DNA of 58,941 nucleotides from a virus (Duplodnaviria; Caudoviricetes). Positions 7,617 to 48,617 of the stretch are shown piece by piece. The notes beneath the pieces are model-generated. The model made no database searches. It worked only from the letters and a program-made list of their open reading frames with translations, and was not told the origin of the DNA. Both the position numbers and the translations under genes were made by a program. The DNA is taken from the IMG/VR virus record IMGVR_UViG_3300037565_000164, positions 1 through 58,941 of that record; one strand, written 5' to 3'. Every line of letters begins with the position of its first letter. Positions within the stretch are counted from its first letter, which is position 1.

Positions 7617-7688
7617 GATTGCTGTCCTTGTTCGGAACAGCACGTCATGCGCTGCAGCACTCATACCGCGATTTTAGGAAACGGGGAA
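7617..7688 (-). promoter_or_regulatory. Late leader 1 (lysis operon): promoter plus GCGCATGACGTGC motif (7640-7652)
   Basis: TTCCCC-17-TATGAG, then the motif; the motif region pairs with GGACAGCA and UCAUGC, covering RBS and AUG. Confidence 0.8.
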
Positions 7689-21649: not shown

Positions 21650-21737
21650 GCTGACGTGCTTTCCCACTTGAGTGGCAGGACAAGCAGCACGTCATGCGCC
21701 GCGGCAAACTTATACGACGGGTTCCGTCGGCCGACTA
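21650..21737 (-). promoter_or_regulatory. Late leader 2 (giant gene): promoter plus motif (21687-21699)
   Basis: TAGTCG-17-TATAAG; UGACGUGCU pairs perfectly with AGCACGUCA, 2 nt before the AUG. Confidence 0.8.
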
Positions 21738-24476: not shown

Positions 24477-24554
24477 GGAGCTCTCCAGAAGTGAGAGCCG
24501 CACGTCATGCGCAGCTAGTCGAAACCTTATACAGCGAGCAGGCGGTCTTGGCGA
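24477..24554 (-). promoter_or_regulatory. Late leader 3 (ejection genes): promoter plus motif (24500-24512)
   Basis: TCGCCA-17-TATAAG; GACGUG pairs with CAUGUC and GCUCUC pairs with GAGAGC. Confidence 0.8.
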
Positions 24555-30916: not shown

Positions 30917-32017
30917 TTAGCCGTTGGGATCGGCGGCGGCCGTGTCGAGAGAGAGCACGCCGAAGTCGCGGTCTTTGAAGCGGGACTTCTTCACGCCGAC
31001 GATGATGCCGCCGATGACCTGCTTTTCGTTGCCGTGGTCGGCCTCGTCCTCACTCCACTGGAAGCGCATGCCGCCCTCGGCGCCGTAGGCGATAGCGCCA
31101 GCCTGGCGTCCGAGGAACAGGGCGCGACCGGCTTCGACATTGCTGCCGGAGCCATAGTCGGAGAAGCGAACGCCGCTCGAATGCTTGTGCAGCACGACAT
31201 TCTTGATCATGCCCAGACCACCCTTGAAGATCGGGTTGTTCCGGCCTTCAGCCGATGCGGCCGCCTTCTGGATATCGATCCAGCCGGTTGTGTCGGCCGT
31301 GCGCAGGTCATGCTCCTGGAACGGGTTCATGACGCAGACATAGTGCGGCTCGCCATTGATATCGATCGGCATCATGTTTGCCTGCTCGGGATCAGTGGCG
31401 GCCAGCATGCCTGCCTTGACCTCGGCCTTTTCGATCAGCGATTTGCTCATCTTGTCGTTGGCATCGAGGTCGCCCTTTGACGTCGCGTCGCCGCCATAGA
31501 GCAGGTGCCCGGCGTCGGGGGCCTCGATTGGATTCTCGGCGTGGCCGGCCCAGGTGGGTGGGGTGATAAAGCCAGCATTGCTGCCGCGTGCGCCGGAGAG
31601 ATAGATGAAGATCATCTCGTCCATGAACTTGGCCCAGTATTCCGACAGGCGGTTGCGGGCCACGGTGCGCAGATTGTGGATGGTGCGCTTCTGGGTCATC
31701 TTGCCACCGGCGCTGACGCCGTGGCGCATCTGGTCGATGCTGATCTGATCCGAGAAGAACTTGAGCTTTTCTTCCTTGCCCTCAAGCCGGTTGTCGCCGG
31801 TCGTGGGCATGCCGCGCAGTTGCACAGACAGGTCGATCTGGATGGTGTCGCCCTTGGCGGCTTCCAGATCGGTCAGGCGCTGAATGGGCGCGTTGTCATC
31901 GTTCTGGATGAACTTCTTCACCCAGTATGACTTGTCATTGGTCTGCAGGAAAAGCGAGCCCGACCACTTCTTGACTGCGCGGGGATCGCCAAACGGAATG
32001 GTCGTGGGACCGGCCAT
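30917..32017 (-). CDS. Major capsid protein, N4-gp56/DUF4043 family
   Basis: AVKKWS, GDTI..DL..QL, LEGKEE.L, IDQMRHGV, NPIFKGGLG, LFLGRQAG, DFGVLSLDT. Confidence 0.9.
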   Translation of the reverse strand: MAGPTTIPFGDPRAVKKWSGSLFLQTNDKSYWVKKFIQNDDNAPIQRLTDLEAAKGDTIQIDLSVQLRGMPTTGDNRLEGKEEKLKFFSDQISIDQMRHGVSAGGKMTQKRTIHNLRTVARNRLSEYWAKFMDEMIFIYLSGARGSNAGFITPPTWAGHAENPIEAPDAGHLLYGGDATSKGDLDANDKMSKSLIEKAEVKAGMLAATDPEQANMMPIDINGEPHYVCVMNPFQEHDLRTADTTGWIDIQKAAASAEGRNNPIFKGGLGMIKNVVLHKHSSGVRFSDYGSGSNVEAGRALFLGRQAGAIAYGAEGGMRFQWSEDEADHGNEKQVIGGIIVGVKKSRFKDRDFGVLSLDTAAADPNG

Positions 32018-32096
32018 GACATGCTCCTAGAAAGGGTTTGAGCACGTCATGCGCTGTGGTGTTGTTACGCATACTGCAATTCGCGGCGCCTGGCAA
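32018..32096 (-). promoter_or_regulatory. Late leader 4 (capsid operon): promoter plus motif (32042-32054)
   Basis: TTGCCA-17-TATGCG; AUGACGUGCUC pairs with GAGCAUGUCAU (11 bp, one G-U), covering RBS and AUG. Confidence 0.85.
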
Positions 32097-34329: not shown

Positions 34330-34638
34330 TTAGGCCGCCGTCCATTCGAACTTGTCGCCAGGCTCGACCAGTACGTCAACCACGGTCAGCGCCGGCACGA
34401 ACAGGCGCGGGCTTGCACCCGCGTCCGGGTTTCCGCCGATCGAGATGTAAGCGTCCACGGCCGAGTAGATCTCGAACACGGCGCTGGCATCGGTCAAGGT
34501 GGGGGCGGCATTGCTGCTGACACTGCCGTCGGCAGGGGCCTCGGACCATTGAGGCTTGCCCAGCACCGGCAGATGGCGCCGGTTTTCCGGGGGAGCGGCA
34601 ATCTTGCAGCAGGTGACATGAAGACCAGAAAAAGCCAT
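34330..34638 (-). CDS. Small virion protein, possible spike base
   Basis: 102 aa, beta-rich, GGAG RBS, directly upstream of the spike-like gene. Confidence 0.55.
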   Translation of the reverse strand: MAFSGLHVTCCKIAAPPENRRHLPVLGKPQWSEAPADGSVSSNAAPTLTDASAVFEIYSAVDAYISIGGNPDAGASPRLFVPALTVVDVLVEPGDKFEWTAA

Positions 34639-34712
34639 GACGAATTCTCCTTGCAGGCGAGCACGTCATGCGCTGATGCACTCTTGATACGCGAATTCGT
34701 GCCGTGTGCCAA
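34639..34712 (-). promoter_or_regulatory. Late leader 5 (spike genes): promoter plus motif (34661-34673)
   Basis: TTGGCA-17-TATCAA; CAUGACG pairs perfectly with CGUCAUG, which contains the AUG. Confidence 0.8.
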
Positions 34713-34718: not shown

Positions 34719-36977
34719 TCAGCCGGACAGCGAGCGCGGCGGGCCGTCCTCGTCGCCATAGGTGTGGCGCACCTTGCCATTCATGGCCGTGGTTGGCATG
34801 CGATGGCCGCTGCTGTTCTGATACCAGCGCTCTCCGCGATTGATGGCGGCCAGCGCATGCGCATTGTGGTTGGACGGGCTGGCGTTCGCTGCACGAATGG
34901 ACGCCTGATCGAGCGGCTTGCGCAGCGACGCCGAGCCGCTGAGCCCTGTCCCGCCGCCGAGACCGATCATGTTGCGCAACCCCTCGACGATGCCCGGCCC
35001 AAACCCCTCTTCGGGAATGCCCAGCGCTCCACGGATGCCGCCCAGAAGTCCTTCCCCGATTCCTTCTTCGGGCAGGCCAATGGCCGTGCGGATATCTCCG
35101 GCCAGGCCATGATCGCTACGCTCGGGTGTGGGTTTTGGAGCGGGCTGGGTACGCAGCCACTCGGGGTTCAGCTCGACCACCGTGCGGGTGCGCAACGTCG
35201 GCCCCATGGTCTCGGCTGTCTTTGCGCCGGCGGCACGCTGCCCCTTGTTGTCGCGGCTCACCGAATAGGTCATCTCGCCAAGCGGAATGGCGTCGCGCTT
35301 GTTAGCGGCGGGCTTCCCACCCTCCTGCCCCGCATAGGTCTGCGGGATCTCGATTGTCTCGGTGCGCGTGATGTACTTCGGTACCTCGGCCGGAGATGTT
35401 GCGGCCGCCGCGCCAGGGGCCGCCGGTGTTGGTGCTGCACCAGTGCGTGGCCGGGTGCCAATATTGGGTGGCGGCGCTGTTGGCGCGATCTGTTCCGGGC
35501 GCGGCCGGGCGCCGACACCTGCAGCCGTCGCCGGTGGTGGCGCTGCGGGGCTAGCGCGCTCCTGGCCAGCATAACTCTGCTGCGCCATGGCGAGCTGGGT
35601 GCGTGACGGACTTGGGGCAGGATCTGGGCGGCTTGGCGCGGGCTCCCGCGCCGGCGGCGACGTCGGCCCGCGCTCCTGGCCGGCAAAGGACTGGGGAGGT
35701 GCCGCCCGCGACACCGGCCTTGGGGCCATGATCTTGGCCGGCCCGGTTTCCCGTCCGGCGAAGCTTTGGGGCTGACGTTCGAGCGTCGCGCGACGCTGCG
35801 CAGTTTCGGCTTGTCGGGTCAGGGTAGTCGCTGCCTCCGGCGTGACGTTGCGCGGCATCGGCACCTGACCCGCTACGGGCTCGGCGGTCCGCTGCACGCC
35901 AGGGCGCCGAGCGACTGGGCCGCGCTCCTGGCCCGCGAAACCGCCATCGCTCGGCACTGGCCGCTGTGGCTGGCGCATGGCGGTGGCGGGAATCGGGTCT
36001 GGCGCCGTCTCGATCGCTGCATCCGGGGTCAGAGAGCCCAGTCCCCGCGTCACGGAAGTGCGCACCAGATCCTCGTCGGGGATATGCCGATACCGGACAT
36101 TGCCATCTGCATCGAGCTGCGGCGTGTGGGCGTTCGGCCGGGTCGCCGCCACTTCCTCTGGGCGCAGCGTCGGCTGCCGCGAAAACCCGAGCCCGATGAC
36201 GTCGGCCATTTCCGGCATCGTGCCGACATCATCCTGCGCGATGATACCGGTCGGCCCAATGGTTGGGAGACTGCGGGCGGGGGCTTGCTCGGTTGGTGCC
36301 TCAGGCCGCTCCGACGCAGGCGTCGGCATGCTCACTTGCTGCGGCGGGCGCTGGTCGCGCGGCGTGGGCATCGTGGGCTCGATGCGAGCCGGGGGCGCCA
36401 CGTCCATTTCCGTCGCGACGATGTTGGGCACCTCTCCTGGCGGAAGCTTCACACCATCGGCAGTGTAAAAGTCACCCGCGAGTTGCGCTTCTACCGGGGT
36501 ATAGCCGTCGGTGGTGCCGTGGTAGTGGATAGACTGCCCGGAGCCGTATCGAGGTCCATCCAGCGCGTCGATCCACTGCCGATTCTTCGCGTCGCTATAA
36601 AGCGGGTTGGCGTAGTGCAAATTGCCGCCGACCGAGCTCGGGGCGCCACCAATACGGCTGTTGACCCAATCATTGACGGCCGAGCGAGCGACGTCCGGCA
36701 CAATGCCATCAGGTACGCGTTCGACGGAGCCCCAGACTTCATAGCCCCGATCGCGCGGACCGTTAATGGCCGAAAACTGCCGGTCCTGATTGGCGACACC
36801 AGCTATGGTGTCAGGAAACTGGGGCGAAGCAACTCGGTTGAGGACGGTGTCGACAATACCTGCGACCTGGCGCTGATACATGTCTGGATCGCGCTGCGCG
36901 AGTCGGTGATCGGCCTCGGTTGCGACGATGCGCTCAAGGTAGATGCGATCCTGCAGAGAGATGTTGATGGGCGCCAT
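34719..36977 (-). CDS. Cell-wall hydrolase (SleB/Hydrolase_2-like N-terminal domain) with a long Pro/Ala-rich tail
   Basis: RIVATEA..VDTVLNRVASPQFPDTIAGV..QFS..HYANP. Confidence 0.8.
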   Translation of the reverse strand: MAPINISLQDRIYLERIVATEADHRLAQRDPDMYQRQVAGIVDTVLNRVASPQFPDTIAGVANQDRQFSAINGPRDRGYEVWGSVERVPDGIVPDVARSAVNDWVNSRIGGAPSSVGGNLHYANPLYSDAKNRQWIDALDGPRYGSGQSIHYHGTTDGYTPVEAQLAGDFYTADGVKLPPGEVPNIVATEMDVAPPARIEPTMPTPRDQRPPQQVSMPTPASERPEAPTEQAPARSLPTIGPTGIIAQDDVGTMPEMADVIGLGFSRQPTLRPEEVAATRPNAHTPQLDADGNVRYRHIPDEDLVRTSVTRGLGSLTPDAAIETAPDPIPATAMRQPQRPVPSDGGFAGQERGPVARRPGVQRTAEPVAGQVPMPRNVTPEAATTLTRQAETAQRRATLERQPQSFAGRETGPAKIMAPRPVSRAAPPQSFAGQERGPTSPPAREPAPSRPDPAPSPSRTQLAMAQQSYAGQERASPAAPPPATAAGVGARPRPEQIAPTAPPPNIGTRPRTGAAPTPAAPGAAAATSPAEVPKYITRTETIEIPQTYAGQEGGKPAANKRDAIPLGEMTYSVSRDNKGQRAAGAKTAETMGPTLRTRTVVELNPEWLRTQPAPKPTPERSDHGLAGDIRTAIGLPEEGIGEGLLGGIRGALGIPEEGFGPGIVEGLRNMIGLGGGTGLSGSASLRKPLDQASIRAANASPSNHNAHALAAINRGERWYQNSSGHRMPTTAMNGKVRHTYGDEDGPPRSLSG

Positions 36978-37053
36978 GCCAGTCCCCTGATGGAGTACCA
37001 GCACGTCATGCGCCTGCGACGCGAACCATAGTCCATCCTGGACGGATTGGCGA
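36978..37053 (-). promoter_or_regulatory. Late leader 6 (hydrolase): promoter plus motif (37001-37013)
   Basis: TCGCCA-17-TATGGT; GUGCUGGU-A-CUCC pairs with GGGG-ACUGGCAU, covering RBS and AUG. Confidence 0.8.
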
Positions 37054-37082
37054 TACGCAGGTCTGCTGCTATGGTCGCGGGC

Positions 37083-37391
37083 ATGAAAGCTGCAGTGACG
37101 ACGTTTATAGCCACGATTTTGCTTCTAGTTCCCGCCACTGCGGCCGAGTGCGTCTGGCAGGCGGAAGATGGTCAGGTGCTTGCTGTTTCCGACCCGGCGA
37201 CAATTTCGATAACGGATCGGGGCGAAACGCAGTTTTGTTCTCTGCGAGGTGCAGGCACCGGCGTTTCCGTTCGGGTCGGATCTTGTGGCGATCTGGAGTG
37301 GCCCTACTTCACTGTGCCATCAGTTCCTGGGGGTCTCGACGACATTCTGATCTTCCAGAACACAGCCTGGTATCGCTGGTGCGCCGACTGA
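37083..37391 (+). CDS. Small secreted protein (moron-like)
   Basis: Signal peptide ending ATA-A; four Cys; opposite strand to the late genes. Confidence 0.65.
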   Translation: MKAAVTTFIATILLLVPATAAECVWQAEDGQVLAVSDPATISITDRGETQFCSLRGAGTGVSVRVGSCGDLEWPYFTVPSVPGGLDDILIFQNTAWYRWCAD

Positions 37392-37397
37392 GCGTCC

Positions 37398-37604
37398 TCA
37401 GCGCCAGATCAGGTGGCGCATAAGGCCCGCACCAAGCCCTCCGGCGGCAACTGCCAGGCCGAGTGTGGCTTCTGGCCAGAACAGCGCGCCGACAATAGCG
37501 CCGACACCAGCGCCCATGCCGACCGCCATGCCATAGCCGACGAACATGAACCAGCTTTCGCTGACCGCTTCGACGCGGGCATTACTGATGGGCAAGTGTC
37601 TCAT
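37398..37604 (-). CDS. Small membrane protein (2 TM, Gly-rich)
   Basis: GAGG RBS; hydrophobic Gly-zipper-like segments. Confidence 0.55.
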   Translation of the reverse strand: MRHLPISNARVEAVSESWFMFVGYGMAVGMGAGVGAIVGALFWPEATLGLAVAAGGLGAGLMRHLIWR

Positions 37605-37816
37605 GGCGGCAACCTCAAGAACAGACTGCCGCATCAACGCATGGGCGGGGCCCTGACGTCAATCCCGGCGCGGCTGGGCACTTTGCTTGGTCAGCGTGAC
37701 AACGGCCACACGCGGCGCCCCCTTGTCCCGATCGACCCGCAACGCCTCACGAACCAGCGGCAGGCGCTGAAACGCCCGCCGCCATAAGCCGGTGGTGTCG
37801 GCCATCTGCTCCATGC

Positions 37817-38038
37817 CTATTCGGCCGGTTCGGGGTCCGGCACCGAAACATGGCGGCTTTCGCCGGTCAGGCCGGTGGCATAGCGCTCCGGCATGACGCC
37901 GGTTTCATTCATCTTGATCGGCGAGATGGCCGTCGCGATGACCAGGCGAACGCGCTGCCCGCTTTTCTCTTTGACCTTGATCGACACCTGGTCGCCGATT
38001 TCCAGAATGTCCCCAACCTTGACGTCGCGCGTGATCAT
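37817..38038 (-). CDS. Divergent CsrA/RsmA-fold RNA-binding protein
   Basis: MITRDVKVGDILEIGDQVSIKVKEKSGQRVRLVIA aligns without gaps to CsrA [35 protein letters not shown]. Confidence 0.75.
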   Translation of the reverse strand: MITRDVKVGDILEIGDQVSIKVKEKSGQRVRLVIATAISPIKMNETGVMPERYATGLTGESRHVSVPDPEPAE

Positions 38039-38047
38039 CGGGTGCCC

Positions 38048-39013
38048 CTATGAGTTGAGATAGCGATCGCGGTCGGCCGGCGACAGCGCCGCAAGGGCGT
38101 TCTCGAAGGCTTCGCCGTTCAAGCGATCGAGATGAGCGAAGCGCCCACCATCACTGAGATTGTCTTCACCCGCTGCCGGCAGCGTGCCGAGCGACGGGGG
38201 AATTTCGCGCTCCCCATTCGCCTTGGGCACAGTTTCCTTCTTGCCCGGCTTTGCAGCCGGAGCGTGCCCGGTGAGGTCGCTGGCTGCGCCGACAAGCGCC
38301 TCATAGGCCTCGCCGATCAGATCCGGGTGGAAAGGATCGGTCTTGTACTTGGTCGCTTGCAGGATGCGGACCTGCGTGTCCAGCAACTGGAACGCCTTGT
38401 TGCCTGTGTCGCCTTCAACCTCTGGGTTGGGCGGCACGAATTGCGGGTGAGCGGTCAGGAAGTCGGGAACGGTCGACTGAATGAAGTCGTGCTTGCGCGC
38501 GTCGTAGCTCTGCCCTGCCCGCTCCTTGGTGAAACGCAGGTCCACGACCTTGTCTTCAAGCGCCTGGCGCTGCTCCTCGTACTCAGCACCGGACAGGTCG
38601 CCGGCATCAAATTTCGCAGCCAGGGCGCGCTGCTCCTGCCGCGTGGCCGTGATTTGCTGGTCGATATCAGCCGGGGCGGTATAGACCGGGCCGGCGGGGC
38701 GCTTGGGCGCCGCATCGGCTGCAGGCGCTGGCGCTGCATCCGGCTGGGCGGGCTTAGCCTGATCTGGCGCCGGCTTATCGGCCGGCTCCGCTTTAGCCGC
38801 CTCCGGATCTGGGTCGGTCTTGCGCTCTTCGGGCTTGGCGGGCGGCGCGGCGCCGTCTTCCAGCTCGGCATCCGACAATGTTTCTATCGTGACGTCGTCG
38901 CTACTTGCTCCCCCTTCGTCCGGGGCGTCATCGAGCAAATCGGGGTCAAGCAGTCCTGCGCGTTCTTCCTCTGTGAGTTCGGCAAGCTGTTCTTCGGTAT
39001 AGGCTGCGGGCAT
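38048..39013 (-). CDS. Scaffolding protein
   Basis: Acidic, disordered N-terminus, coiled coil, C-terminal helix pair; follows the portal gene. Confidence 0.7.
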   Translation of the reverse strand: MPAAYTEEQLAELTEEERAGLLDPDLLDDAPDEGGASSDDVTIETLSDAELEDGAAPPAKPEERKTDPDPEAAKAEPADKPAPDQAKPAQPDAAPAPAADAAPKRPAGPVYTAPADIDQQITATRQEQRALAAKFDAGDLSGAEYEEQRQALEDKVVDLRFTKERAGQSYDARKHDFIQSTVPDFLTAHPQFVPPNPEVEGDTGNKAFQLLDTQVRILQATKYKTDPFHPDLIGEAYEALVGAASDLTGHAPAAKPGKKETVPKANGEREIPPSLGTLPAAGEDNLSDGGRFAHLDRLNGEAFENALAALSPADRDRYLNS

Positions 39014-39034
39014 GCGGCGGTCCTCTTCGGGGGG

Positions 39035-41272
39035 CTAGACGCCGGCGGGCGGCTGGGCCGCGGCTGGCGATTGGGGGATTTGGGGTTGCTGCGGCTGGGG
39101 CGGCGCTGGTGCGGGCGCTGGTGCGTTGGGCGTCTCGTAGCCCGCCTCTTCCAGGATCGCGTCGGCGACATGGGCGGCGGCCGGGGGCAGCGCCAGGCTG
39201 TCGGCGGCAACGGTGAGCGCCCGCCCGGCCGTGTCGACCTTGGTGCCGACCAGCTTGGCCTTTTCGGCCTCGACGCGAGTCATGATGCTGTTGGCCTCGG
39301 CGATCAGCTTGTTGGCCTTGCCCTCGTCGGCCGCGATCTTGGCGATAAGGCCACGCTGTTGCAGTTGCGCGGCCTCGGTGGCGGCCTGTTCGCGCTGCTG
39401 CTCTTCGGGCGTCATGTCCTCGGGGCTGGCGTCGGGGTCTTTCATCCCGGTCATCTGGCGGATGCGCTTGACGATTTCGTCGCGCATGTCGATGTCCATG
39501 TTTTCGACCAGCAGGTCGAGCACGATCAGGGTGAGCTGCGGGTTCTGCGCCTTGGTGATGAGCTCGATGATCTGATCGACGGCGGTTTGGCGCAGCGAGG
39601 CCCGCCAGTCCGATTCCGACATGATGAAGTCGGCCTTGGTGCGGACGATGTCGTTTTCCATGTTCCCGTCATTGACGGTGATGAACTCCGGATTGCCGCG
39701 CGCATTGGTGATGCGGAACTGGCGCTGCTCATCGACGAACTGCTCAATCAGGGAGAGCTGCTTTTCGCCCTGCAACTGCCGTGACAGCCGGTAATTCTCG
39801 AAATATCCGGCCGTCGCCATGGAGCCCTGGTTCTGGCGGTTCTCGATCGCGACACCCGAGGCGGCATTTGTGCGGCGGCCCAGCAGCTCGTCGGTGACCC
39901 CGCTGGCCTGCTGGATCATGGCGATCGAGCGGCTGAACATCTCGAGCTGGTACTGGCTGAGCTCAGTGTCGGCGTTAAGCGTGAGCTCGGAGCCGCGCTT
40001 CTTGATGATGATGCCGTCCGGGCGCCCGGCCTCTTCGCGCAGATCCTCGACGTCGAAGTCGTCGGCTAGCGCGTTGTCGTCCATGATGATCTTGTTGGTG
40101 GAGAGGATGTAGAGCGCCTTGGACGCGCGCTTATTGATATCCTCCTGGATGCCCTTGATGCCCCGGATCATGCCGTAGGGCTGGCCGTCGCGGGCCCGGC
40201 GCTTGCCCCAGACCGGGGTGTAGGGGAACTTGTTGTGCCGGTAAGGGCTTTCGGAAAACCAAAGCATGCCCCCCGGCGTGAAGATGGCGACGTGCATGCG
40301 CATCTGCACGCTGGTGGAGAGGTTGACGCCCCGCTCCTCGTTGATCGACCAGAGGTGCCCTTCTGAGTGCGGGTCGAAAATTTCATTGGCGAAGGTGCCG
40401 CCTTTGAGCCGCTTCGTCTCGACGGGCAGGCGCAACCAGCCTTCCATGATGCGCAGCCGCTGCCGGTGATAGCCGTGCATGAGCGCGCTGGTTTCGGCGG
40501 AGAAGCCCAGCTCGGCCAGCTCCTGTGCGTCCATCGCCTCGTCGCCGAAGCTGTCGCTGCCCAGAAAGCTCTGCGCATCCTCGACCGAGGCTGTGAGCAG
40601 TCCCTTGCGCTTCGGGAACACCGAACAGGCGACATCGAGGTCGACCCATTTGGAGCGGAACAGGTAGCGGCCCTCGTCGAAATCGAACCCGGCCAGGCTG
40701 TCGTGCAGCATTTCGCGCCAGTTCACATAGCGCGAATAGATCGGCTCGCCATCGGTGTCGGGCTGCACCCCGTCCTCGATCCAGCCCAGGCCACTGCGCA
40801 CGGCATCCTCGAAGGCGCGACTGGCGTGGTGCTGACTGTGGTTGACGTCGGCAAAATACTTGAGCAGTTGGCTCTTGCGCTGGGCGGCGGCCGCACCCTC
40901 TTTCTTGCGCGGCAACACTTTGGCGTCGGCCCGCGATCGCTTCTCGGTGTTGACCACCCAATCGACCGAGGCGGAGATGACGTTATAGACCAGCGCCTTC
41001 TGGCCGCGCTCTTCCAGGGTCGCCGCATCACTGGGGGACCATTGCAGATTGTCGTAGAAGTCGTCGTCCTCGGCGCGTTCAACGCGATTGAGGTACTGCC
41101 GGTCGAGCTCGTTGATGTAATACGCCATGCACCGCTGGTGCATCTCGACCATCGCGGGACCGTCGAGCTTGTCCGGCACAATGGCCTGCGCGCCCTCGGC
41201 CTCGCTCCCCGGGATAGGCGACTTGTACGGCTTGTTGCGTGTCGAGTCGGCGCCGGCAGAAACGTCAAACAT
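39035..41272 (-). CDS. Portal protein (P22-like)
   Basis: DFYDNLQW, AVRSGLGW, PYGMIRGIKGIQEDINKR, ASGVAIENRQNQG. Confidence 0.9.
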   Translation of the reverse strand: MFDVSAGADSTRNKPYKSPIPGSEAEGAQAIVPDKLDGPAMVEMHQRCMAYYINELDRQYLNRVERAEDDDFYDNLQWSPSDAATLEERGQKALVYNVISASVDWVVNTEKRSRADAKVLPRKKEGAAAAQRKSQLLKYFADVNHSQHHASRAFEDAVRSGLGWIEDGVQPDTDGEPIYSRYVNWREMLHDSLAGFDFDEGRYLFRSKWVDLDVACSVFPKRKGLLTASVEDAQSFLGSDSFGDEAMDAQELAELGFSAETSALMHGYHRQRLRIMEGWLRLPVETKRLKGGTFANEIFDPHSEGHLWSINEERGVNLSTSVQMRMHVAIFTPGGMLWFSESPYRHNKFPYTPVWGKRRARDGQPYGMIRGIKGIQEDINKRASKALYILSTNKIIMDDNALADDFDVEDLREEAGRPDGIIIKKRGSELTLNADTELSQYQLEMFSRSIAMIQQASGVTDELLGRRTNAASGVAIENRQNQGSMATAGYFENYRLSRQLQGEKQLSLIEQFVDEQRQFRITNARGNPEFITVNDGNMENDIVRTKADFIMSESDWRASLRQTAVDQIIELITKAQNPQLTLIVLDLLVENMDIDMRDEIVKRIRQMTGMKDPDASPEDMTPEEQQREQAATEAAQLQQRGLIAKIAADEGKANKLIAEANSIMTRVEAEKAKLVGTKVDTAGRALTVAADSLALPPAAAHVADAILEEAGYETPNAPAPAPAPPQPQQPQIPQSPAAAQPPAGV

Positions 41273-41702
41273 CGGTCAGGACATCCTCAATGAGGGTCTT
41301 GCCCGTGGCGCGATCGGTGACGGTCACTTCGCCGATGACGGTTCCCGCCTCGCGCACATTGGGCGGGAACGGCGGCATGCTGATCAGGTCGCCGAGGTGG
41401 TCGTTGATAAAGCCGTAGATGCGGAAGATATTGCGCTCGTCCGGCTCCAGGCGCAGTGACTCGCAGATGTTGAGCAATTGCCGGGCCGTTTGCGCGCCAT
41501 CGCCGATGCGCTCGTCCCAGATCCAGGCCTTGTCGAGCGTGATGATATAGGGGCGTGTCGCGCCGGACATCTCCTCGCCGCGGCGCAGCAGCGCCAGGCA
41601 GGGGTGATAGTCTCCGTCGATGAGAAGCCAGGTCCCAACGCCAGTGATTTCGTGGCGCTGATAGGCAAACGCACGCTGGCTGAGGTCGATCGAGGCGGTC
41701 AT
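41265..41702 (-). CDS. Hypothetical protein between terminase and portal
   Basis: Protein-like ORF overlapping the portal start. Confidence 0.7.
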   Translation of the reverse strand: MTASIDLSQRAFAYQRHEITGVGTWLLIDGDYHPCLALLRRGEEMSGATRPYIITLDKAWIWDERIGDGAQTARQLLNICESLRLEPDERNIFRIYGFINDHLGDLISMPPFPPNVREAGTVIGEVTVTDRATGKTLIEDVLTDV

Positions 41703-41788
41703 GCTCGGCCCCCACGGTTAGGGCTGAGCGGCAACGGGCCGAAAAATGCGCTGTTTCGCTTCATATGTCCATGGGGCATTGGTTTTCC

Positions 41789-43369
41789 TCATGAGGTCAT
41801 GGCGCTGCTGCGCCGTTTGCGGGAACGCTTGAGGTCTTTGGCGATGGTGTTGGTGTTGAGCATGCCGTGCTTTCCGGCCGAGGCCTTCTGGCGCAGGGCG
41901 TCGGCCGCGTGCTGGTGGCCGTTCTTGGCAATGGCCGAGGTGAACACCTGCATGGTCTTGTTGAACACCTTGGCGAAGCCATCCAGATGCTCGATGCCGG
42001 CCTTGCAGTGCGTTTCATCGAACCGATAGGTCGAGAAGTCCTGCCGCATGAGCTGGATTTCCACCTCGACGCTGTCGGCGCGCGGGACAATCTCGATGTC
42101 CTTGAGCCCGACTTCCTCGATCATGTCCTTGTATGTGACCAGGCGTTCGGTCTGCATCCGCCGGTGGGCGCCGTCATGGGGCAGATAGTGTTTACCCCAG
42201 ACGAACTTGCGTTCCTCGCGGATCTTCTGCAGCTCGCTCACATAGTAGGAGGGCGGCTCGCCGGAGCACTCGATAAAGCCGATGAAGTGATCCCACGCCC
42301 CAACATGCTGGTGCAGCCAGATGGCCGTGGCATCATCGGTGCCCAGATCCCAGAAGGTGTTGACGGGAACGCCTTGCACCAGCGGAATATCGCCAATCCG
42401 GCCTTGCACCCGGCAAATGGCCATCTGTTCGGCAAGCCACAGCCCGTTCGCGGCGACGGTGAAGGCCTCGTCGAGCGTGGTTGGGTACTGGCGCCACATC
42501 TTGGCCTTTTCGCCACCAAACTGGCTCGCCAGCACGGTGACGTACCAGGCGCGCTTGCGCAGGCTGATGGGGCGTCCGATGACCGCTTCCATGCGGGCGA
42601 AATAGGCGTGTTCCTGCGGGGAGATGATGATGCCATCGGGCGGCAGCTCATATTCCTCGGCGTCCCACCAACTGGCGAAGTGCAGGCGATAGTCGAGCTT
42701 GGTCAGCGCGCGGCCCTGCTTTTCGATATCGGCGGCGTGCTTCACCATGTCGGAGAAGATGCCGTAGGGGCTTTCCACCGTGCTCTCGATGGTGGCGATA
42801 CCGTTGGCCGGCACGGCCGGAAGCGAGCCTTCCTGGATTTCGCGGGCCTTGATCGGATCTTCGAGGCAGATCAGGCCGTATTCCGAGACATGCAGTATAT
42901 CGATGGTGCCACCGCGCACGGAGGTCGACACCGACATGCTCGAATCATTGCCCCACGCCAGCTCGGTCTGGTTGTCGGTGGTGAGCGGCACCATGTCCCG
43001 GATCAGTGGGGGCAGCCGGTCATAGGCAAACTTGATCTTGCCATCGCGGATGCGCGACGCAGTGTCCCGGTCCTGGGCGATGATGGCGGCGTTCGTCTGC
43101 GGCGTGAAAAGGCAGGTATCCAGCGTCAGGATCTGTTTGCAGGTCGAAAAGCCACGCTGGCGCGCCTTGGGCACCAGGTTGCGAAACCACAGCCGATCGA
43201 GAAACTTGTCCTGCGCCTCGTTGGGGCGAAAGGTGACGGTGTTCCCGTCCTTGTCCTTGATCTTGTAGAGGTTGCGGATGCGCCAATGCGCGTCGCTCAT
43301 CGCATCGATGAGCTCGGACTCCCGCATCTCCTCGACGGGCCGGTAAATCCTGGGCGGCGACGCTTCCAT
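41789..43369 (-). CDS. terL: Terminase large subunit
   Basis: KARQRGFST Walker A, LHVSE Walker B, IEST, WDLG..DATAIW, YLPHD, HAADA. Confidence 0.93.
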   Translation of the reverse strand: MEASPPRIYRPVEEMRESELIDAMSDAHWRIRNLYKIKDKDGNTVTFRPNEAQDKFLDRLWFRNLVPKARQRGFSTCKQILTLDTCLFTPQTNAAIIAQDRDTASRIRDGKIKFAYDRLPPLIRDMVPLTTDNQTELAWGNDSSMSVSTSVRGGTIDILHVSEYGLICLEDPIKAREIQEGSLPAVPANGIATIESTVESPYGIFSDMVKHAADIEKQGRALTKLDYRLHFASWWDAEEYELPPDGIIISPQEHAYFARMEAVIGRPISLRKRAWYVTVLASQFGGEKAKMWRQYPTTLDEAFTVAANGLWLAEQMAICRVQGRIGDIPLVQGVPVNTFWDLGTDDATAIWLHQHVGAWDHFIGFIECSGEPPSYYVSELQKIREERKFVWGKHYLPHDGAHRRMQTERLVTYKDMIEEVGLKDIEIVPRADSVEVEIQLMRQDFSTYRFDETHCKAGIEHLDGFAKVFNKTMQVFTSAIAKNGHQHAADALRQKASAGKHGMLNTNTIAKDLKRSRKRRSSAMTS

Positions 43370-43378
43370 GAGGACGGC

Positions 43379-43723
43379 TCAGTCCTCCTGCAGGCGGTGA
43401 CTGGCGCGGGCCAGCAGCCCCAGCGCCGTGAAATTGTCCGGCGCTGCATTGCGGAAGCCATGGCCCAGCCTGCCGTCGTCATGTTCGACCGCGAAAGTCA
43501 CCACCAGCGCGGTAACCTTGGTTTCGCCTGTGTCGATCTCGCGCAGCAGGTTCACCAGCGCGTCGCGCGGGCTCCATTGCGCGGCTGACTGGTCGCGCTT
43601 GGCGCGGGCTTCGCCGATCGTGGTGGGTGCATCGGCAAAGGAGGCCGGTGACGCAATTGTCCGCGAGTCGATTGCGACATCTTCGGCTGGTTCCTCGTTG
43701 TCGGGATCGGTCCAGTGCGTCAC
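43379..43723 (-). CDS. Hypothetical protein
   Basis: GTG start coupled to the upstream stop; WSPRDALVNLLREIDTGE. Confidence 0.65.
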   Translation of the reverse strand: MTHWTDPDNEEPAEDVAIDSRTIASPASFADAPTTIGEARAKRDQSAAQWSPRDALVNLLREIDTGETKVTALVVTFAVEHDDGRLGHGFRNAAPDNFTALGLLARASHRLQED

Positions 43724-43896
43724 AGCCAGCCCCCCATTTCCAGCAGTGCCAGCGTCATGCGGGTCGTGAACTGGGGCAGGCCGATAAAGAGCAGCCAGAG
43801 CGCAAACCAGGACAGCGCGGCGAGGCCGGTGATAACGACGCCACGCGGCGGCCGGGGCAGCTTGCAGGTCGGGTGTGCGAGGGGCCAATTAGGCAT
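43720..43896 (-). CDS. Small membrane protein
   Basis: GGAGG RBS; one TM segment. Confidence 0.5.
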   Translation of the reverse strand: MPNWPLAHPTCKLPRPPRGVVITGLAALSWFALWLLFIGLPQFTTRMTLALLEMGGWL

Positions 43897-44020
43897 TGTG
43901 GCCTCCCCCCATCGCAATGAGCATGCGTTCCATGATGTCCGGTAGCCAGACAAAGCACAGCCACATTGCCAGTCCGACCGCGACGCAGATGAGGACGAAT
44001 TCTGCCCAGCGCCACGCCAT
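43889..44020 (-). CDS. Small membrane protein (43 aa)
   Basis: MAWRWAEFVLICVAVGLAMWLCFVWL; coupled overlaps. Confidence 0.45.
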   Translation of the reverse strand: MAWRWAEFVLICVAVGLAMWLCFVWLPDIMERMLIAMGGGHNA

Positions 44021-44511
44021 CAATGCTTCTCCGCCGGTTCAACGGGCTGTGGCACAGCGATTTTGTAGAAGTGTCCGTCGGCGGTCCGCCACTGGATCGC
44101 GGCGCCGTCGTCGACGATACAGCCATTCTGGAGCGCCACGCCGTCAAGATCCGGGTGTTTCCGAAGTGGCTCCACCATTTCTGCGCCATTGGTGCAGTAG
44201 ATGACGATCGTGTCGTCAGCAGTTTGCGCCCACCGCTTTACCTTGTTGAATACCTGCTGCTCCTCGGCGAACCCAAACGCGTGGAGCTTTCCGGCAGTTG
44301 CCTCTATGGCTTGCGATATCTGGGTGTGCGCAAGTACGTGAAGCTCCGGGGTAAGAGGTATGTCCAGCGCGTGTTCCGGGGAGGAGAAATGCGCGGTGAT
44401 GCGTATGCTGGCCTGACCCCTCTCGTGCGCACGTCTGAGAGCTTTCAGCGCCCGCAGACGTTGGAAGAGGCTCTGGATCGTCTCGATGTCCCGTTCCGTC
44501 GGCATCGTCAC
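44020..44511 (-). CDS. Hypothetical protein
   Basis: GGGAGG RBS; GTGA overlap. Confidence 0.6.
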   Translation of the reverse strand: MTMPTERDIETIQSLFQRLRALKALRRAHERGQASIRITAHFSSPEHALDIPLTPELHVLAHTQISQAIEATAGKLHAFGFAEEQQVFNKVKRWAQTADDTIVIYCTNGAEMVEPLRKHPDLDGVALQNGCIVDDGAAIQWRTADGHFYKIAVPQPVEPAEKH

Positions 44512-44819
44512 GCCCTCCCCGCCGAGCGCCGCTTGCGCCAGCGACGATGGGCGCGCTCGCCCGGCCCACGGTTCTTGAGCGCAGAGAGTGCGCGGTTGCG
44601 CTTGATGTGTAAGGCGGCCTGCCGCGCCGCGAGTGTTGTCGATTTGGGCACGGCGCTTTGCGTTTTAACTGTCGCTTTGGCGGGTGTCGGCGGGGCCGGG
44701 TAGAGTGTGCGTGCCTCTGACTGTGAGACGGATTTTGTTGTGGCCACAAAACCCAACCCGCCACCAAGCAGGGCGACCATTGCAGTTGCAGCAGCGCCCA
44801 ATCCAAATCTACTTCGCAT
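44508..44819 (-). CDS. Hypothetical basic protein with a hydrophobic N-terminus
   Basis: GGAG RBS; directly follows terS. Confidence 0.55.
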   Translation of the reverse strand: MRSRFGLGAAATAMVALLGGGLGFVATTKSVSQSEARTLYPAPPTPAKATVKTQSAVPKSTTLAARQAALHIKRNRALSALKNRGPGERAHRRWRKRRSAGRA

Positions 44820-44821
44820 GG

Positions 44822-45592
44822 TTACGTCTCCTGTTGGTCCGGCTCCTGCGGCCGGATGGCATTTGCGGGTTTTGTGGGTGGCAGGCCGAGGCCGGGCGCC
44901 TGGTCGGGCGTCATGGGGCGAATGCCGGTACCGGCGAGCTGTTCGTAGAGGCGTTGCAGCGGCGGGGTGACGTCGTGCTCGACCTTGTCCTTGAAGGCCT
45001 GGACGTCGACATGCTTGCCGATCATCTCTTTGAGCTTGGACCGGCTGGCGGTCTTGTATTCGACGATGCGGGCAACGATGAGCTCGCCGTCTGGCGTGAG
45101 CTCTTCGCGGATCTTGAGCCCTTCGACGAGACCCTGTCGGAACACGAGAGGCCAGTCAGCGACGGGCTTCAAGCTGCCATCGGGATTGTGGATGTCGTTC
45201 AGATCGGCCTCGAGCTCGTCGCCCAACCGCTGCAGCAGCTTTTCGGCCGTCCATTTGGTGGCGCGGCTGCGTTCCTTCATCAACTCGGTGATGCATCGCG
45301 CAATGTGAGGTTTTCTCAGGTTCTCATAAGCGATGACGGCGGCGGTCTTTTTGCTGTAGCCGGCGCGGATCGCCGCTTGCGTGCCGTTGAAGTCGATGAT
45401 GTATTCCTGGCAGAACTGGAATTCCTTCGGCGTCAGGCGCTTCGCCTCGGGCGCCGTGCCGGGAGTGGCCTGCTCGGCCTGCGCTGCCGAAACCGGCTCG
45501 CCCTCAATGTCGAAATACTTGTCCGCGATCGCGCGAGCGCGCTCACGCTCGCGGTCCTCTTTCGTCGATCGGGGCGAGGTCGGCTTCGGCAT
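44822..45592 (-). CDS. terS: Terminase small subunit
   Basis: LTPKEFQFCQEYIIDFNGTQAAIRAGYSKKTA...NLRKP. Confidence 0.92.
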   Translation of the reverse strand: MPKPTSPRSTKEDRERERARAIADKYFDIEGEPVSAAQAEQATPGTAPEAKRLTPKEFQFCQEYIIDFNGTQAAIRAGYSKKTAAVIAYENLRKPHIARCITELMKERSRATKWTAEKLLQRLGDELEADLNDIHNPDGSLKPVADWPLVFRQGLVEGLKIREELTPDGELIVARIVEYKTASRSKLKEMIGKHVDVQAFKDKVEHDVTPPLQRLYEQLAGTGIRPMTPDQAPGLGLPPTKPANAIRPQEPDQQET

Positions 45593-45597
45593 ATCAG

Positions 45598-45888
45598 TCA
45601 GTCGATCTGCCGTTCAATGCGCTCAAGGCTGTGTTCGAGCCTGCTGGCCAACTCATCGAGCTCGTAGCCGAATCCCCGCGTTTCACCGAGTAGGCCATCG
45701 CCTGCCGACGGGACTTCCCGTGGCCCGGAAACGGTGTCGGAAGGAGGCTCACTGCCAACCAGGCGATCGGCAAGCATGCCGGCGCGGCCCACCACCCTGC
45801 GCAGCCTGTCGGTAGCGGATGATAAGGGCGCGTTGAAATCCTGCCGCTTGACGGCGACGGGGTCAGACATAGGCATTGTATTCTCCAT
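45598..45888 (-). CDS. Hypothetical protein
   Basis: Helical ORF within the operon. Confidence 0.55.
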   Translation of the reverse strand: MENTMPMSDPVAVKRQDFNAPLSSATDRLRRVVGRAGMLADRLVGSEPPSDTVSGPREVPSAGDGLLGETRGFGYELDELASRLEHSLERIERQID

Positions 45889-46228
45889 GATTGGCGCTGC
45901 CCGCGTTTGCGGGTTCGAGCGGGGACGGTTCTGGAATCGGGGGGTGTGCGACGTCGAGCAGCGGCCTGAACAACGCCAGATCCGCCTCGATCTTGGGGTC
46001 AGTCACGGGCCGGAACAGCAGCGCGCAAAACCAGACGGTGCTGAACCCCTTCAAGCGGATGTAGGGAAGGCCGCGATGGGTCCCGACTGCGGCAACAACG
46101 TATGTCCCGCCCCTGATCGGCAGGCCGAGGGAGCGCAGCCAAAGCCACTTCAAGATGGGGACGTCGCCGCGATCCCACTCGGATGTTAGCGACACGCATT
46201 TGACGCCAGGCGCTGCCCAGTGGCTCAT
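45863..46228 (-). CDS. Hypothetical protein
   Basis: PGVKCV...FRPV pattern; ATGA overlap. Confidence 0.6.
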   Translation of the reverse strand: MSHWAAPGVKCVSLTSEWDRGDVPILKWLWLRSLGLPIRGGTYVVAAVGTHRGLPYIRLKGFSTVWFCALLFRPVTDPKIEADLALFRPLLDVAHPPIPEPSPLEPANAGSANHGEYNAYV

Positions 46229-46596
46229 GACACCACCATCCAGTCGCGGGCGAACACTTCGGTCTGGTCAGCGCGCCACCGCTTTGCCTCGTTGCCCGGC
46301 ACTTCCAGCCACAAGGCGTCGTCATGCGCGACAATGCGTTCGCTGTTGCGCCAGACCTTCCGCGCCACGGCATTGCCGTTCAGCAGCGCGAATATGGCCC
46401 GCGCGAAGTCCATGGCGCCGACGGCCTGGTAGTACTGCTCGAACCGTTCCGCCGGCACCCAGCTTTCGCGGCCGTCCAGCGTCACCAAATAGCCCGGGCG
46501 GCTTGGCTCGGTACCGGGCGCGTTAATGGGGCCAAGGGCGGGATAGGCGTGGGCGAGCCGGATGCCGATGTGATCGGGCGGGAGCGTGCCGTTCAT
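46225..46596 (-). CDS. DUF2829/Tad2-like protein
   Basis: GYLV...SWVP..FE..Y, MDFARAIFALLNGNAVARKVW, WRADQTEVFARDW. Confidence 0.7.
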   Translation of the reverse strand: MNGTLPPDHIGIRLAHAYPALGPINAPGTEPSRPGYLVTLDGRESWVPAERFEQYYQAVGAMDFARAIFALLNGNAVARKVWRNSERIVAHDDALWLEVPGNEAKRWRADQTEVFARDWMVVS

Positions 46597-46844
46597 AGAC
46601 CCATGCTCCTTTCTTGCGCCTGACGCTTGATGCGGTTCCACAGCCAGTCGTCGACGCGGCCCATGCGAGGTGTCCATCCATGGCGGTTGGCGCGGCGCTT
46701 GAGCGTGGTGCGCATCTGCCGATAGGCCTTATCGGCAAGCCGGTAGTGATTGCCGCACATGTACTCGATCGTGGCAGGGTCACCGGGTAGCCGCTTGAAG
46801 GTGCGGCGGCAGCCAAGGATGACGCAGGGGCATCGTTCGCTCAT
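46593..46844 (-). CDS. Small basic Zn-finger-like protein
   Basis: CVILGC...MCGNHY. Confidence 0.65.
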   Translation of the reverse strand: MSERCPCVILGCRRTFKRLPGDPATIEYMCGNHYRLADKAYRQMRTTLKRRANRHGWTPRMGRVDDWLWNRIKRQAQERSMGL

Positions 46845-47464
46845 GACTTGGACGCCTTTGCCAGATTGGCGCGCGCTGTCTCGATGATGAGCGCCGGAAA
46901 CATCCAACCGCCCCGGCCATCGGTAAGCGAAGGGTTACGGTTGTGCTTGAGGCGACAGCATTCGCGGTAGAGCTCTTCGTCCAACACCGCGTGCACATGC
47001 TGCATGGGTGCCACTACATCTGGTGCTCCATCATCCCTGCCCCCCTCTGGGGGTAAGGGGGTAAAAGGATCTGGACTGGTAGTAGGAACCTGGTTCCGCA
47101 CCTTCCGGAACGAGGTTCCGGAGCTTTCCTCAACACGTGCGGAACGTGGTTCCGCACCTTCGTCAACATCTAGTGGGTCGGGCCAAAGCGCCCAATATTC
47201 GGTATTGCGCCAGCGCTGACCCCGAAACCCGTGCTCGGTGCGCTTGAGCCAGCCCGCGCTTTCGGCCAGCTCGAGATGTTTTCGGACAGCACGATCGGAC
47301 AGCCCCGTGGCCTCGGCCAATTGCTCCTGGGTGGGATAGCAGCCGCCACCAACATCGTTCATGAAACAGCTGAGCGTCAGCAGCACATGCCGCGTCGTGG
47401 CGGACAGGTCCGATTTGAGGATCAGATGGCGCCATGTCCAGGCGCGCCCGCTGGAACCACTCAT
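46841..47464 (-). CDS. Replication initiator (N-terminal wHTH, HTH_36-like)
   Basis: VLLTL..FMN..GCYPTQEQLAEATGLSDRAVRKHL..AE..GWL; internal iterons. Confidence 0.8.
   Translation of the reverse strand: MSGSSGRAWTWRHLILKSDLSATTRHVLLTLSCFMNDVGGGCYPTQEQLAEATGLSDRAVRKHLELAESAGWLKRTEHGFRGQRWRNTEYWALWPDPLDVDEGAEPRSARVEESSGTSFRKVRNQVPTTSPDPFTPLPPEGGRDDGAPDVVAPMQHVHAVLDEELYRECCRLKHNRNPSLTDGRGGWMFPALIIETARANLAKASKS
47085..47160. repeat. Three iteron-like repeats GGAAC-NNG-GTTCCG (probable origin)
   Basis: 47085-47104, 47107-47120 and 47141-47160; the first and third share a GCACCTT extension. Confidence 0.75.
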
Positions 47465-47736
47465 TGGACCGCCTCTTGCGGCTGGTCCGATTCGGCGGGC
47501 GGCGGCGGGTCAATCATGCCCCATAGCGAGGGCGGCGCCGAATAGCCGCGCTCTTCCAGTGCCTTGGTGAGCACCACGTAAGTGTCGGACGCCAGACGCC
47601 CGCGCAGCCTGTAGTTATCGACGCGCTGCCATGCGCGCTTGCCGGTGGCGCCAATGATGTCGCAGACCGCAGGGATGCCCCCCAGGGCCTCGAACACCTC
47701 CGGTATCGTCTCAAGCGATGTAAGCTGGTCTGTCAT
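47461..47736 (-). CDS. Cro-like regulator
   Basis: FEALGGIPAVCDIIG..RVDNYR; divergent from the repressor. Confidence 0.7.
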   Translation of the reverse strand: MTDQLTSLETIPEVFEALGGIPAVCDIIGATGKRAWQRVDNYRLRGRLASDTYVVLTKALEERGYSAPPSLWGMIDPPPPAESDQPQEAVQ

Positions 47737-47769
47737 TGATGGCCGCCACGCAGTTGCGGCGGACCATAA

Positions 47770-47843
47770 ACAACAATTCGTTGTATCGCAATTGACAACG
47801 GATCAAAGCTAGCGTTTCTTGGCGAGATACAACAAAATGTTGG
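47770..47843. promoter_or_regulatory. cI/cro operator region, ACAAC-N5-GTTG operators
   Basis: ACAACAATTCGTTGT (47770-47784), ACAACAAAATGTTGG (47829-47843); TTGACA at 47792. Confidence 0.75.
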
Positions 47844-47844
47844 A

Positions 47845-48162
47845 ATGAGCTTTCACATGCCCGACACTTCCGGTGAAGCAATCGGCAAGCGCCTGGTCGC
47901 CGTCCGGGAGGCGCGCGGCTACCTGCAAGGCTTCCTCGTCCAGCTTCTCGACACCAGCCAGCAACGCTGGAGCAATTACGAGAAGGGCAACCGCGTGCTG
48001 CCCAACGACCTGCTCTACAAGTTCTGCAAGGTCACCGGGGCGACGACGGATTTTGTGCTGTTCGGAGAAATGTCCGGAATGCCGATGGATCTGGTGCAGA
48101 TCCTGCGCGAGCGCGGTTACGACTTCAACGGAGGAGCCGGCCCGGGGGCGCGGGCCGGCTAA
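47845..48162 (+). CDS. XRE-family repressor (CI-like, no peptidase domain)
   Basis: IGKRL..VREARG..Q..L..SQQRWSNYEKG.R...TDFVLFG. Confidence 0.85.
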   Translation: MSFHMPDTSGEAIGKRLVAVREARGYLQGFLVQLLDTSQQRWSNYEKGNRVLPNDLLYKFCKVTGATTDFVLFGEMSGMPMDLVQILRERGYDFNGGAGPGARAG

Positions 48163-48180
48163 GTTTGTGATCGACGACGC

Positions 48181-48393: not shown

Positions 48394-48459
48394 CACCAAA
48401 AAATCCCCCAGTTCGTTGTGCCAATGGGCGGTCGAGCCCATACCGTCCATGGCACGATA

Positions 48460-48510: not shown

Positions 48511-48617
48511 CTGTCTTGCAATGGGCCGCAGAGTGGGCCCAGAGCACGGGGGTCAGATCAATGGCTATTTGGACACATGGTAAGCGCGGCGCCGATTGGG
48601 GGCGCCACAGCCCGGCA

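Follow-up and report, generated by a model that had tools for sequence, protein, structure and literature searches.

A divergent CsrA-like protein and AUGAC leader hairpins as a probable translation switch in a Bcep22-like podophage

What is a small CsrA-like protein, in which both residues critical for RNA binding by CsrA are replaced, doing behind the portal and scaffold genes of a phage? Phage CsrA genes have been noted for over a decade, mostly as host-directed "morons". By its own statement, a 2025 study was the first in which CsrA's part in a phage life cycle was put to the test (PMC11879866). Here we consider one such gene in a complete 58.9-kb provirus of IMG/VR, the whole analysed stretch of 58,941 nucleotides being referred to as the window, and ask which RNA its product would read.

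Identity and setting of the CsrA-like gene

The window phage is a Bcep22-like podophage. Its terminase-portal region has 64-69% nucleotide identity to the Sinorhizobium phage PBC5, the Agrobacterium phage Atu_ph08, Ralstonia and Burkholderia phages and two "Microcystis phage" records, its portal is of the P22 type (Pfam 4e-163), and it carries a giant 4653-aa ORF that is typical of the group. Counterparts of this minus-strand ORF in BcepMigl, POI1126 and Atu_ph08 are annotated as DarB-like antirestriction protein, DNA methylase or Snf2 helicase. In the phage collection, the window is closest at the nucleotide level to those named Microcystis phages, PP395639.1 (loci L004/L007) and PP438417.1, which have their gene order and AUGAC motif in common with phages of Rhizobiales hosts and encode yet another variant of the CsrA-like protein (L-S-P-C-K-V-R-R). 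The tail-fibre gene of the window (26991-28304) holds three tandem repeats of 138 nt at 27604-28017, the later two being 70% and 61% identical to the first.

The gene for the CsrA-like protein (Table 1) starts 9 nt past the stop codon of the scaffold-like gene and has an AGGGG Shine-Dalgarno sequence of its own, 6-7 nt upstream. Its location downstream of terminase, portal and scaffold, as put forward in the original prediction, was confirmed by the Pfam and PHROG gene calls. Both this order (portal, scaffold-like gene, then a small CsrA-like gene) and the element in the capsid leader described below are those of the Bcep22-type 'CsrA-like regulator', and the window ORF is a positional orthologue of this regulator of Bcep22-like (Lessievirus-type) podophages. 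The gene class itself is already known, being annotated in Bcep22-like phages (BcepMigl; PMC9144972, in excerpt): gp50 of BcepMigl, flanked by a scaffold-like gene and the capsid gene, bears the name 'CsrA-like regulator', the same gene in JC1 (gp47) is described as a moron in the excerpt of PMC9144972, and the name is also listed for DC1 and GP4 in excerpts of PMC9144972 and PMC7366521. As in the window, a small CsrA homologue follows the portal and scaffold-like genes of the Bcep22-like phages, but theirs stands just before the capsid gene, as far as the same excerpts go (PMC9144972, PMC7366521). Regulator and capsid gene are adjacent in most relatives, whereas in the window they are separated by some 5.8 kb of extra genes.

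Among these extra genes is that of the 752-aa minus-strand protein following motif copy 1, in which an N-terminal hydrolase domain (Pfam Hydrolase_2, 5.8e-9) precedes a very long Pro/Ala-rich region. Furthermore, a 114-aa ORF with a signal-peptide-like start lies on the opposite, plus strand (37047-37391) between the regulator and motif copy 1, and POI1126 likewise has small reverse-strand genes (gp07-gp09) at the equivalent spot. Moron insertion may be favoured at this spot.

Table 1. The CsrA-like gene, the block upstream of it and the six motif copies in the window
Feature	Position	Strand	Basis or context
CsrA-like gene, 73 aa, alpha-type subfamily, Arg4, Asn44	37817..38038	-	Pfam, PHROG, family profile, AlphaFold2
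Motif-less upstream block of regulator gene	38048..43369	-	ORFs, Pfam, PHROG, motif scan
Large terminase	41789-43369	-	Part of motif-less block
145-aa gene	41265-41702	-	Part of motif-less block
P22-type portal	39035-41272	-	Part of motif-less block
Scaffold-like gene	38048-39013	-	Directly before CsrA-like gene
Motif copy 1 (GGCGCATGACGTGCT)	37000..37014	-	Before ATG 36975-36977 of 752-aa cell-wall hydrolase-domain protein (34719-36977)
Motif copy 2	34660..34674	-	Before ATG 34636-34638 of 102-aa gene (34330-34638)
Motif copy 3	32041..32055	-	Before major capsid gene (30917-32017, phrog_334 4e-125)
Motif copy 4 (TGCGCATGACGTGCG)	24499..24513	-	Before ATG 24474-24476 of virion structural protein (23043-24476, phrog_8003)
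Motif copy 5	21686..21700	-	Before giant DarB-like ORF (7706-21667; alternative in-frame ATG 21647-21649)
Motif copy 6	7639..7653	-	Before ATG 7614-7616 of holin-like gene (7377-7616), then endolysin (6901-7380)

The 73-residue product, which begins with MITRDVKVGDILEIGD, is hard to place as a single sequence. Its match to the Pfam CsrA family (PF02599) spans residues 6-35 only and reaches 18 bits, the cut-off being 27 bits, and a word-indexed protein search with it returned no sequence but the query itself, while PHROG 8397 ('CsrA-like regulator') is matched at 5.7e-6. An exhaustive HMMER search yielded 41 proteins at E<=0.001, and the family alignment comprises the query and 39 homologues (62-87 aa, E<=8e-4). 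Two long matches were left out: P0004 (927 aa), which on reading turned out to contain repeats of a PDZ-like segment, and P0016 (2309 aa), for its length and its five matched stretches. The consensus of the family runs M-L-x-L-x-V-K-V-G-Q-A-V-x-I-G-D, with a strand K-S-G-x-x-V-R-L, a segment x-P-I-[RK]-I and a C-terminal G-[IV]-I-P-x-x-F-x-x-G-[IL]-[TS]-G. Pfam CsrA is matched at E<=0.01 by 29 of the 40 family members, and searching the PDB library with the profile of these 40 gave matches to nine distinct CsrA/RsmE chains at E values from 2.6e-7 to 2.6e-4, followed by an unrelated match at E 0.015. Because so many relatives match and the family profile reaches these nine chains, the homology holds despite the failure of the single sequence to reach the Pfam cut-off, and we conclude from sequence at the family level that the window protein is a divergent, or aberrant, homologue within the CsrA superfamily. 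CsrA-like ORFs with insertions or longer N-termini, which the family HMM missed, were seen at loci L077, L086, L106, L126 and L163 and widen the diversity of the family.

The low Pfam score and the word-indexed search that found only its own query might be taken as signs of a decaying or chance ORF in GC-rich DNA that has no function. We regard this as highly improbable, as 39 small homologues share a conserved C-terminal motif, the position of the gene is kept in 107 of 111 related loci, and the ORF has its own Shine-Dalgarno sequence.

In the AlphaFold2 model (pLDDT 84.1), five strands at residues 2-6, 11-14, 18-21, 30-34 and 41-44 follow the strand order of CsrA. A long C-terminal helix is absent from the model, which has just one short helix of three residues (51-53). 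With the monomer model as query, fold searches did not return CsrA, their best rows being TRAP E 2.2 ('pdb'), Z 2.5 ('pdb_via_wide') and E 1.2 ('viral'); CsrA is an intertwined dimer, which is expected to be hard to find from a monomer. A two-copy complex prediction, run once, scored 0.31 against a mark of 0.42. In the protein atlas, which was used for leads only, CsrA clusters appear at 0.89. The structural neighbours listed there include the cluster of FlbT, a regulator of flagellin mRNA in alphaproteobacteria, at TM 0.48, which is below the bar and is mentioned as a lead only. An AbrB/SpoVT-type fold was considered as well; Pfam at E<=1 lists CsrA alone.

How much of the RNA-binding surface is left? 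The critical residues of CsrA are L4 and R44, according to the excerpted text of PMC7652899. With the conserved Gly27 as anchor and no gaps in the count, the window protein has Arg at position 4 (Leu in CsrA) and Asn at position 44 (Arg in CsrA), the basic residue nearest to position 44 being Lys42. The expectation that both RNA-contact regions are altered was thereby borne out, the altered segment reading ATAISPIKMNET, in a protein that is still a CsrA homologue. Leu4 is kept in most of the subfamily, and Arg4 is particular to the window protein. At the C-terminus, the window protein carries the alpha-type motif G-V-M-P-x-x-Y-x-x-G-L-T-G, and this conserved Pro/Gly motif appears to stand in place of the C-terminal helix of CsrA.

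A leader element ahead of six late units

A 13-nt core, GCGCATGACGTGC, occurs exactly at six sites, all on the minus strand and all in the leaders of late genes. There, the element GCGC-AUGAC-GUGC sits 22-46 nt ahead of a start codon with a ribosome site, at the head of six late units (Table 1). When up to three mismatches are allowed, the 15-mer has 13 matches in the window compared to 3.3 +/- 1.9 in shuffled sequences, and a count of 13 was reached in none of 100 shuffles. On the minus strand from 37014 to 49676, which includes the terminase-portal-scaffold-regulator block, no match was found at <=3 mismatches; the regulator's own gene indeed has no motif leader, as had been claimed. TAT-type -10-like hexamers can be read by eye 7-13 nt upstream of each motif copy, and these hexamers are absent from the list produced by a consensus promoter scan. 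Rfam at gathering thresholds gave no matches in the window, and no tRNAs were found in it.

The unit under motif copy 6 is a lysis cassette (6180-7616, minus strand) in which the holin-like and endolysin genes are joined by a 137-aa gene (6488-6901) and a lipoprotein-like gene (6180-6491). The latter has an LSAC lipobox-like signal, and the cassette possibly includes a spanin pair.

When isolated from its leader, the element can fold into a stem of 4 bp, one of them G-U, that is capped by an AUGAC loop. In full leaders the motif pairs instead with the start-codon region, which was found for all six leaders of the window and for the capsid leaders of four relatives (z -1.2 to -4.8). The capsid leader of the window (copy 3) forms a 12-bp helix that covers the AUG and part of the Shine-Dalgarno sequence, with an MFE of -21.3 kcal/mol and a z of -3.49, and the z values of the five non-capsid leaders lie between -1.2 and -3.4. 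In the leader of copy 1 (36966-37016) the motif is paired to the AUG region (z -3.05), in that of copy 2 CAUGACG is paired with CGUCAUG (z -2.0), in that of copy 5 UGACGUGCU is paired with AGCACGUCA just ahead of the alternative AUG at 21647-21649 (z -1.2), and the fold of the copy 6 leader has a z of -3.37. Since the 5' arm is identical over the six leaders while their 3' arms differ, a trans-acting factor that reads the sequence is suggested.

The element is also located ahead of the capsid gene in POI1126 and Mwe-JY07 (both AUGAC), PBC5 and Atu_ph08 (AUGA), BcepMigl (AGGAU) and Darius (AGGA). POI1126 carries the 13-mer at five late leaders, four of them exact and the fifth differing by one change; in PBC5 and Atu_ph08 the element stands at three or more leaders each, while in BcepMigl and Darius it was found before the capsid gene only. 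A wider set of 240 loci, in which some phages are filed twice, was drawn from three collections via portal alignment (the single portal protein alone gave 2 loci), with 80 of 381 IMG/VR relatives and 80 of 262 metagenome relatives being kept. A capsid gene is present at 117 of these loci, and a pattern search recovers the element in 111 of them; of the remaining six, five carry variants that the pattern missed and one lies at a contig edge. Over these 111 capsid leaders the loop follows the consensus A-N-GA, in which N is G, U or A, within a GCGC/GUGC stem that is near constant. The most frequent loops are AUGAC (24), AGGA (23), AGGAC (14) and AAGAC (13), followed by AUGA (8), AUGAU (8), AAGA (6), AGGAU (5), AGGAA (4), AAGAU (3) and three singletons. 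The version with GGA found in relatives (A-GGA-UGU, on a short hairpin) matches the SELEX consensus quoted in the excerpt of PMC7652899. A CsrA-like ORF was detected upstream of the element by HMM in 107 of the 111 loci, and in an earlier set of 79 loci all seven HMM misses proved to have such an ORF by eye. As gene and motif always go together, there is no natural loss by which their dependence could be tested.

Does the long-range pairing leave a mark in these leaders? RNAalifold on 15 aligned capsid leaders recovers the local 4-bp hairpin alone, with invariant pairs and no covariation. An alignment-based consensus misses the long-range helix because its register differs between GGA and UGA leaders, and the pairing partners were therefore scored leader by leader. 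Over 37 unique capsid leaders, the mean duplex energy of the start region is -15.3 kcal/mol with its own motif, compared to -12.3 with the other variants and -9.7 when the start regions are shuffled, and in 31 of the 37 the leader's own variant gives the stronger pairing. The second loop position forms U-A in 13 leaders, G-C in 12 and A-U in 3, with no partner in the other 9; for position 5, the pairs are C-G (18), U-A (6) and U-G (3). In 29 of the 37, the pairing extends over the AUG.

A leader that folds back in this way might not need the CsrA-like protein at all. The element could act in cis as a lock on the start codon, a 5' stabiliser or a processing site, opened by ribosomes, temperature, or a host or other phage factor, or it could be promoter-side DNA, with the protein acting on host RNA or in the virion or its assembly. 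In keeping with this, the fold-back helices are stable alone, the window protein is without L4 and R44, and the co-occurrence of gene and element could be mere conserved gene order. Moreover, one peptide of the JC1 homologue was detected in purified virions by authors who see a moron in the gene, as reported in the excerpt of PMC9144972, a hint that the protein may have a different or a further role. However, an identical 13-mer 5' arm over six leaders with different 3' arms needs a reader of sequence, the use of a G-U pair and the way in which the element covaries with the start region are traits of RNA, not of DNA, and the GGA variants fit the CsrA consensus. Furthermore, the hosts that were checked have no Csr system to hijack: CsrA was found above the Pfam cut-off in none of five hosts of related prophages (Phyllobacterium, Mesorhizobium, Oricola, Hoeflea and Agrobacterium), and the three weak matches in those genomes fall at prophage coordinates. 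The excerpt of PMC7366521 agrees with this, Burkholderia and S. meliloti being likewise without CsrA. As the five prophage-host genomes lack a CsrA of their own, a host Csr regulon is an unlikely target. An element that works independently of the protein seems to us rather unlikely.

Protein variants and loop variants

If the protein reads the loop, do the two change together? The 89 distinct CsrA-like proteins comprise 71 without the alpha-type C-terminal motif and 18 of the alpha type. Among the 71, a basic residue at position 44 (R/K44) is combined with a GGA loop in 27 and neither is present in 29, while 6 have a GGA loop without R/K44 and 9 have R/K44 with a non-GGA loop (Fisher 1.1e-6, for a count that is blind to ancestry). 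For the alpha type, the loop goes with the Gly27-to-Gly spacing: AUGAC accompanies a spacing of 20 in 10 of 10 cases, and AGGAC/U a spacing of 19 in 7 of 8.

When ancestry is taken into account by way of a portal tree, 10 independent contrasts among the non-alpha proteins divide into 3.9 in which R/K44 changes the same way as the loop, 1.1 in which it changes the opposite way and 5.0 in which it is unchanged (p about 0.38). All three independent sister contrasts of the alpha type go the same way. A combined trait, which was chosen post hoc, moves with the loop in 6.9 of 13 contrasts, moves against it in 1.1 and does not move in 5.0 (median p 0.07), and smaller sets present the same picture in these contrast tests. 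An example is L067 (P-I-R-R, AUGGAC loop) against its sisters L056 and L065 (P-I-R-I, AUGAC), and the comparisons of L099 with L121 and of L092 with the L053 clade are telling as well.

The original prediction held that the altered residues fit a shift in specificity toward an AUGAC loop. This was supported insofar as relatives of the Arg44 type mostly have GGA loops; however, the association is borderline after ancestry (p about 0.07), and the U of the loop has an explanation in RNA alone, since CAUGAC is complementary to GUCAUG at the start codon. As such, the comparison of protein and loop sequences suggests a shift of protein specificity from GGA to UGA loops, and the loss of Arg44 and Leu4 would reflect this move.

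Conversely, the family might be a generic reader that binds an A-N-GA loop or its shape and leaves position 2 unread, in which case the loop variants would be neutral drift compensated within the RNA, with neither a specificity shift nor orthogonality. Over the 111 capsid leaders, loop positions 1, 3 and 4 are constant and position 2 is G, U or A, and this position covaries with its partner in the RNA. In 5.0 of the 13 contrasts the loop switches without a change at the scored protein positions, and the exceptions noted above run both ways (6 GGA loops without R/K44, 9 non-GGA loops with it). Against this stand the canonical CsrA, for which SELEX gave 100% conservation of GGA and R44 is required (PMC7652899, in excerpt), the strong raw association of R/K44 with GGA, and the direction of the protein changes, which is the expected one in 6.9 contrasts versus 1.1. 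We consider a reader that ignores position 2 unlikely.

A proposed switch and its known counterparts

So what would the protein be for? Together with the non-GGA leader hairpins, the CsrA-like protein probably makes up a translation switch that is owned by the phage. Its most likely job would be the translational control of the phage's own late genes rather than a host-directed one, and its most likely operator would be the 13-nt GCGC-AUGAC-GUGC close to the 5' end in the six late leaders, provided that the motif is part of the transcript. By default, the element would pair with the start-codon region and hide the start codon. In the reading that we prefer, the protein would bind the element, capturing it during transcription and thus keeping the start codon open. 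The protein would be supplied by the motif-less terminase-portal-scaffold operon, and the capsid, giant-protein, tail/virion and lysis genes would then be translated only once portal and scaffold have been made, a timing cascade that we infer from the gene order. With the opposite sign, the protein would clamp the leader and repress translation. Taken as a whole, an explanation in which the regulator acts on the late genes of the phage via this candidate operator has, in our estimate, an even chance of being right; the score below the Pfam cut-off and the absence of both RNA-binding residues, L4 and R44, are points against it.

The preferred reading can be carried further. Host-type promoters would fire, late messages would be born locked at their start codons, and a CsrA-like key made along with portal and scaffold would open them, so that timing is set at translation. 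Key and lock would have co-evolved into orthogonal pairs for GGA, UGA and AGA, with the window representing a UGA-reading key in which Arg44 and Leu4 are replaced and the new C-terminal motif contacts RNA. We regard this extended version as possible yet doubtful.

Compared to E. coli CsrA and P. fluorescens RsmE (PDB 1y00, 2jpp), the window protein has the same strand pattern (profile match E 2.6e-7), and the candidate operator resembles theirs in being a short hairpin in the 5' leader near the ribosome site. However, L4 and R44 are replaced, a C-terminal helix is not predicted, the candidate loop is without GGA, no antagonist sRNA is known, and the checked hosts have no CsrA. According to the excerpt of PMC7652899, CsrA activates ymdA (and also moaA and phz2) by opening a leader hairpin that hides the ribosome site. 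By analogy, binding inside the leader structure of the window would free the ribosome site in a similar manner, but unlike in ymdA the start codon itself is usually buried, and both mechanism and sign are our own proposal here.

The Bcep22-like phages come closer. Their capsid leaders carry a homologous GCGC-loop-GUGC element that, as in the window, folds back on the start region. In their regulators the fifth strand is still CsrA-like and closes with Arg (DAPKSVPIDR), and the loop is AGGAU, whereas the window combines ATAISPIKMNE, Arg4 and a new C-terminal Pro/Gly motif with an AUGAC loop. Moreover, the element heads six units in the window, in contrast to the capsid gene alone in BcepMigl and Darius. 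The nearest named relative of the window protein is gp06 of Ochrobactrum phage POI1126, annotated as hypothetical and 40% identical to it across residues 1-62. The C-terminal motif is shared, and the same 13-mer is present in the POI1126 genome, but unlike the window protein gp06 has retained Leu2 and Leu4 and has an Arg in its P-I-R segment. In the paper on POI1126 (PMC5492332), the words CsrA, motif, promoter, hairpin and gp06 are all absent.

Among the papers that our literature search covered, none was found on the leader element or on a non-GGA phage CsrA. What is new is a candidate operator, predicted from its non-GGA (AUGAC) motif, on six late units, as well as an alpha-type protein in which Arg44 and Leu4 are replaced and which has a novel C-terminal motif; added to these is a comparative hint that key and lock change together. 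A phage CsrA gene thereby gains a concrete candidate target in the phage's own capsid, giant-protein, virion and lysis leaders. If the loop and protein variants truly match, they would provide ready-made orthogonal pairs of a small protein and an RNA hairpin for translational control, and if the specificity shift is true, it would be a natural experiment on how the CsrA fold is re-tuned after the loss of Arg44.

A separate observation concerns the coding sequence of the regulator itself, in which the mRNA strand at 37888-37902 reads CCGG-CGUCAUG-CCGG, a hairpin with a loop complementary to the core of the leader motif. This stretch encodes the conserved G-V-M-P, and the complementarity is possibly a coincidence of coding.
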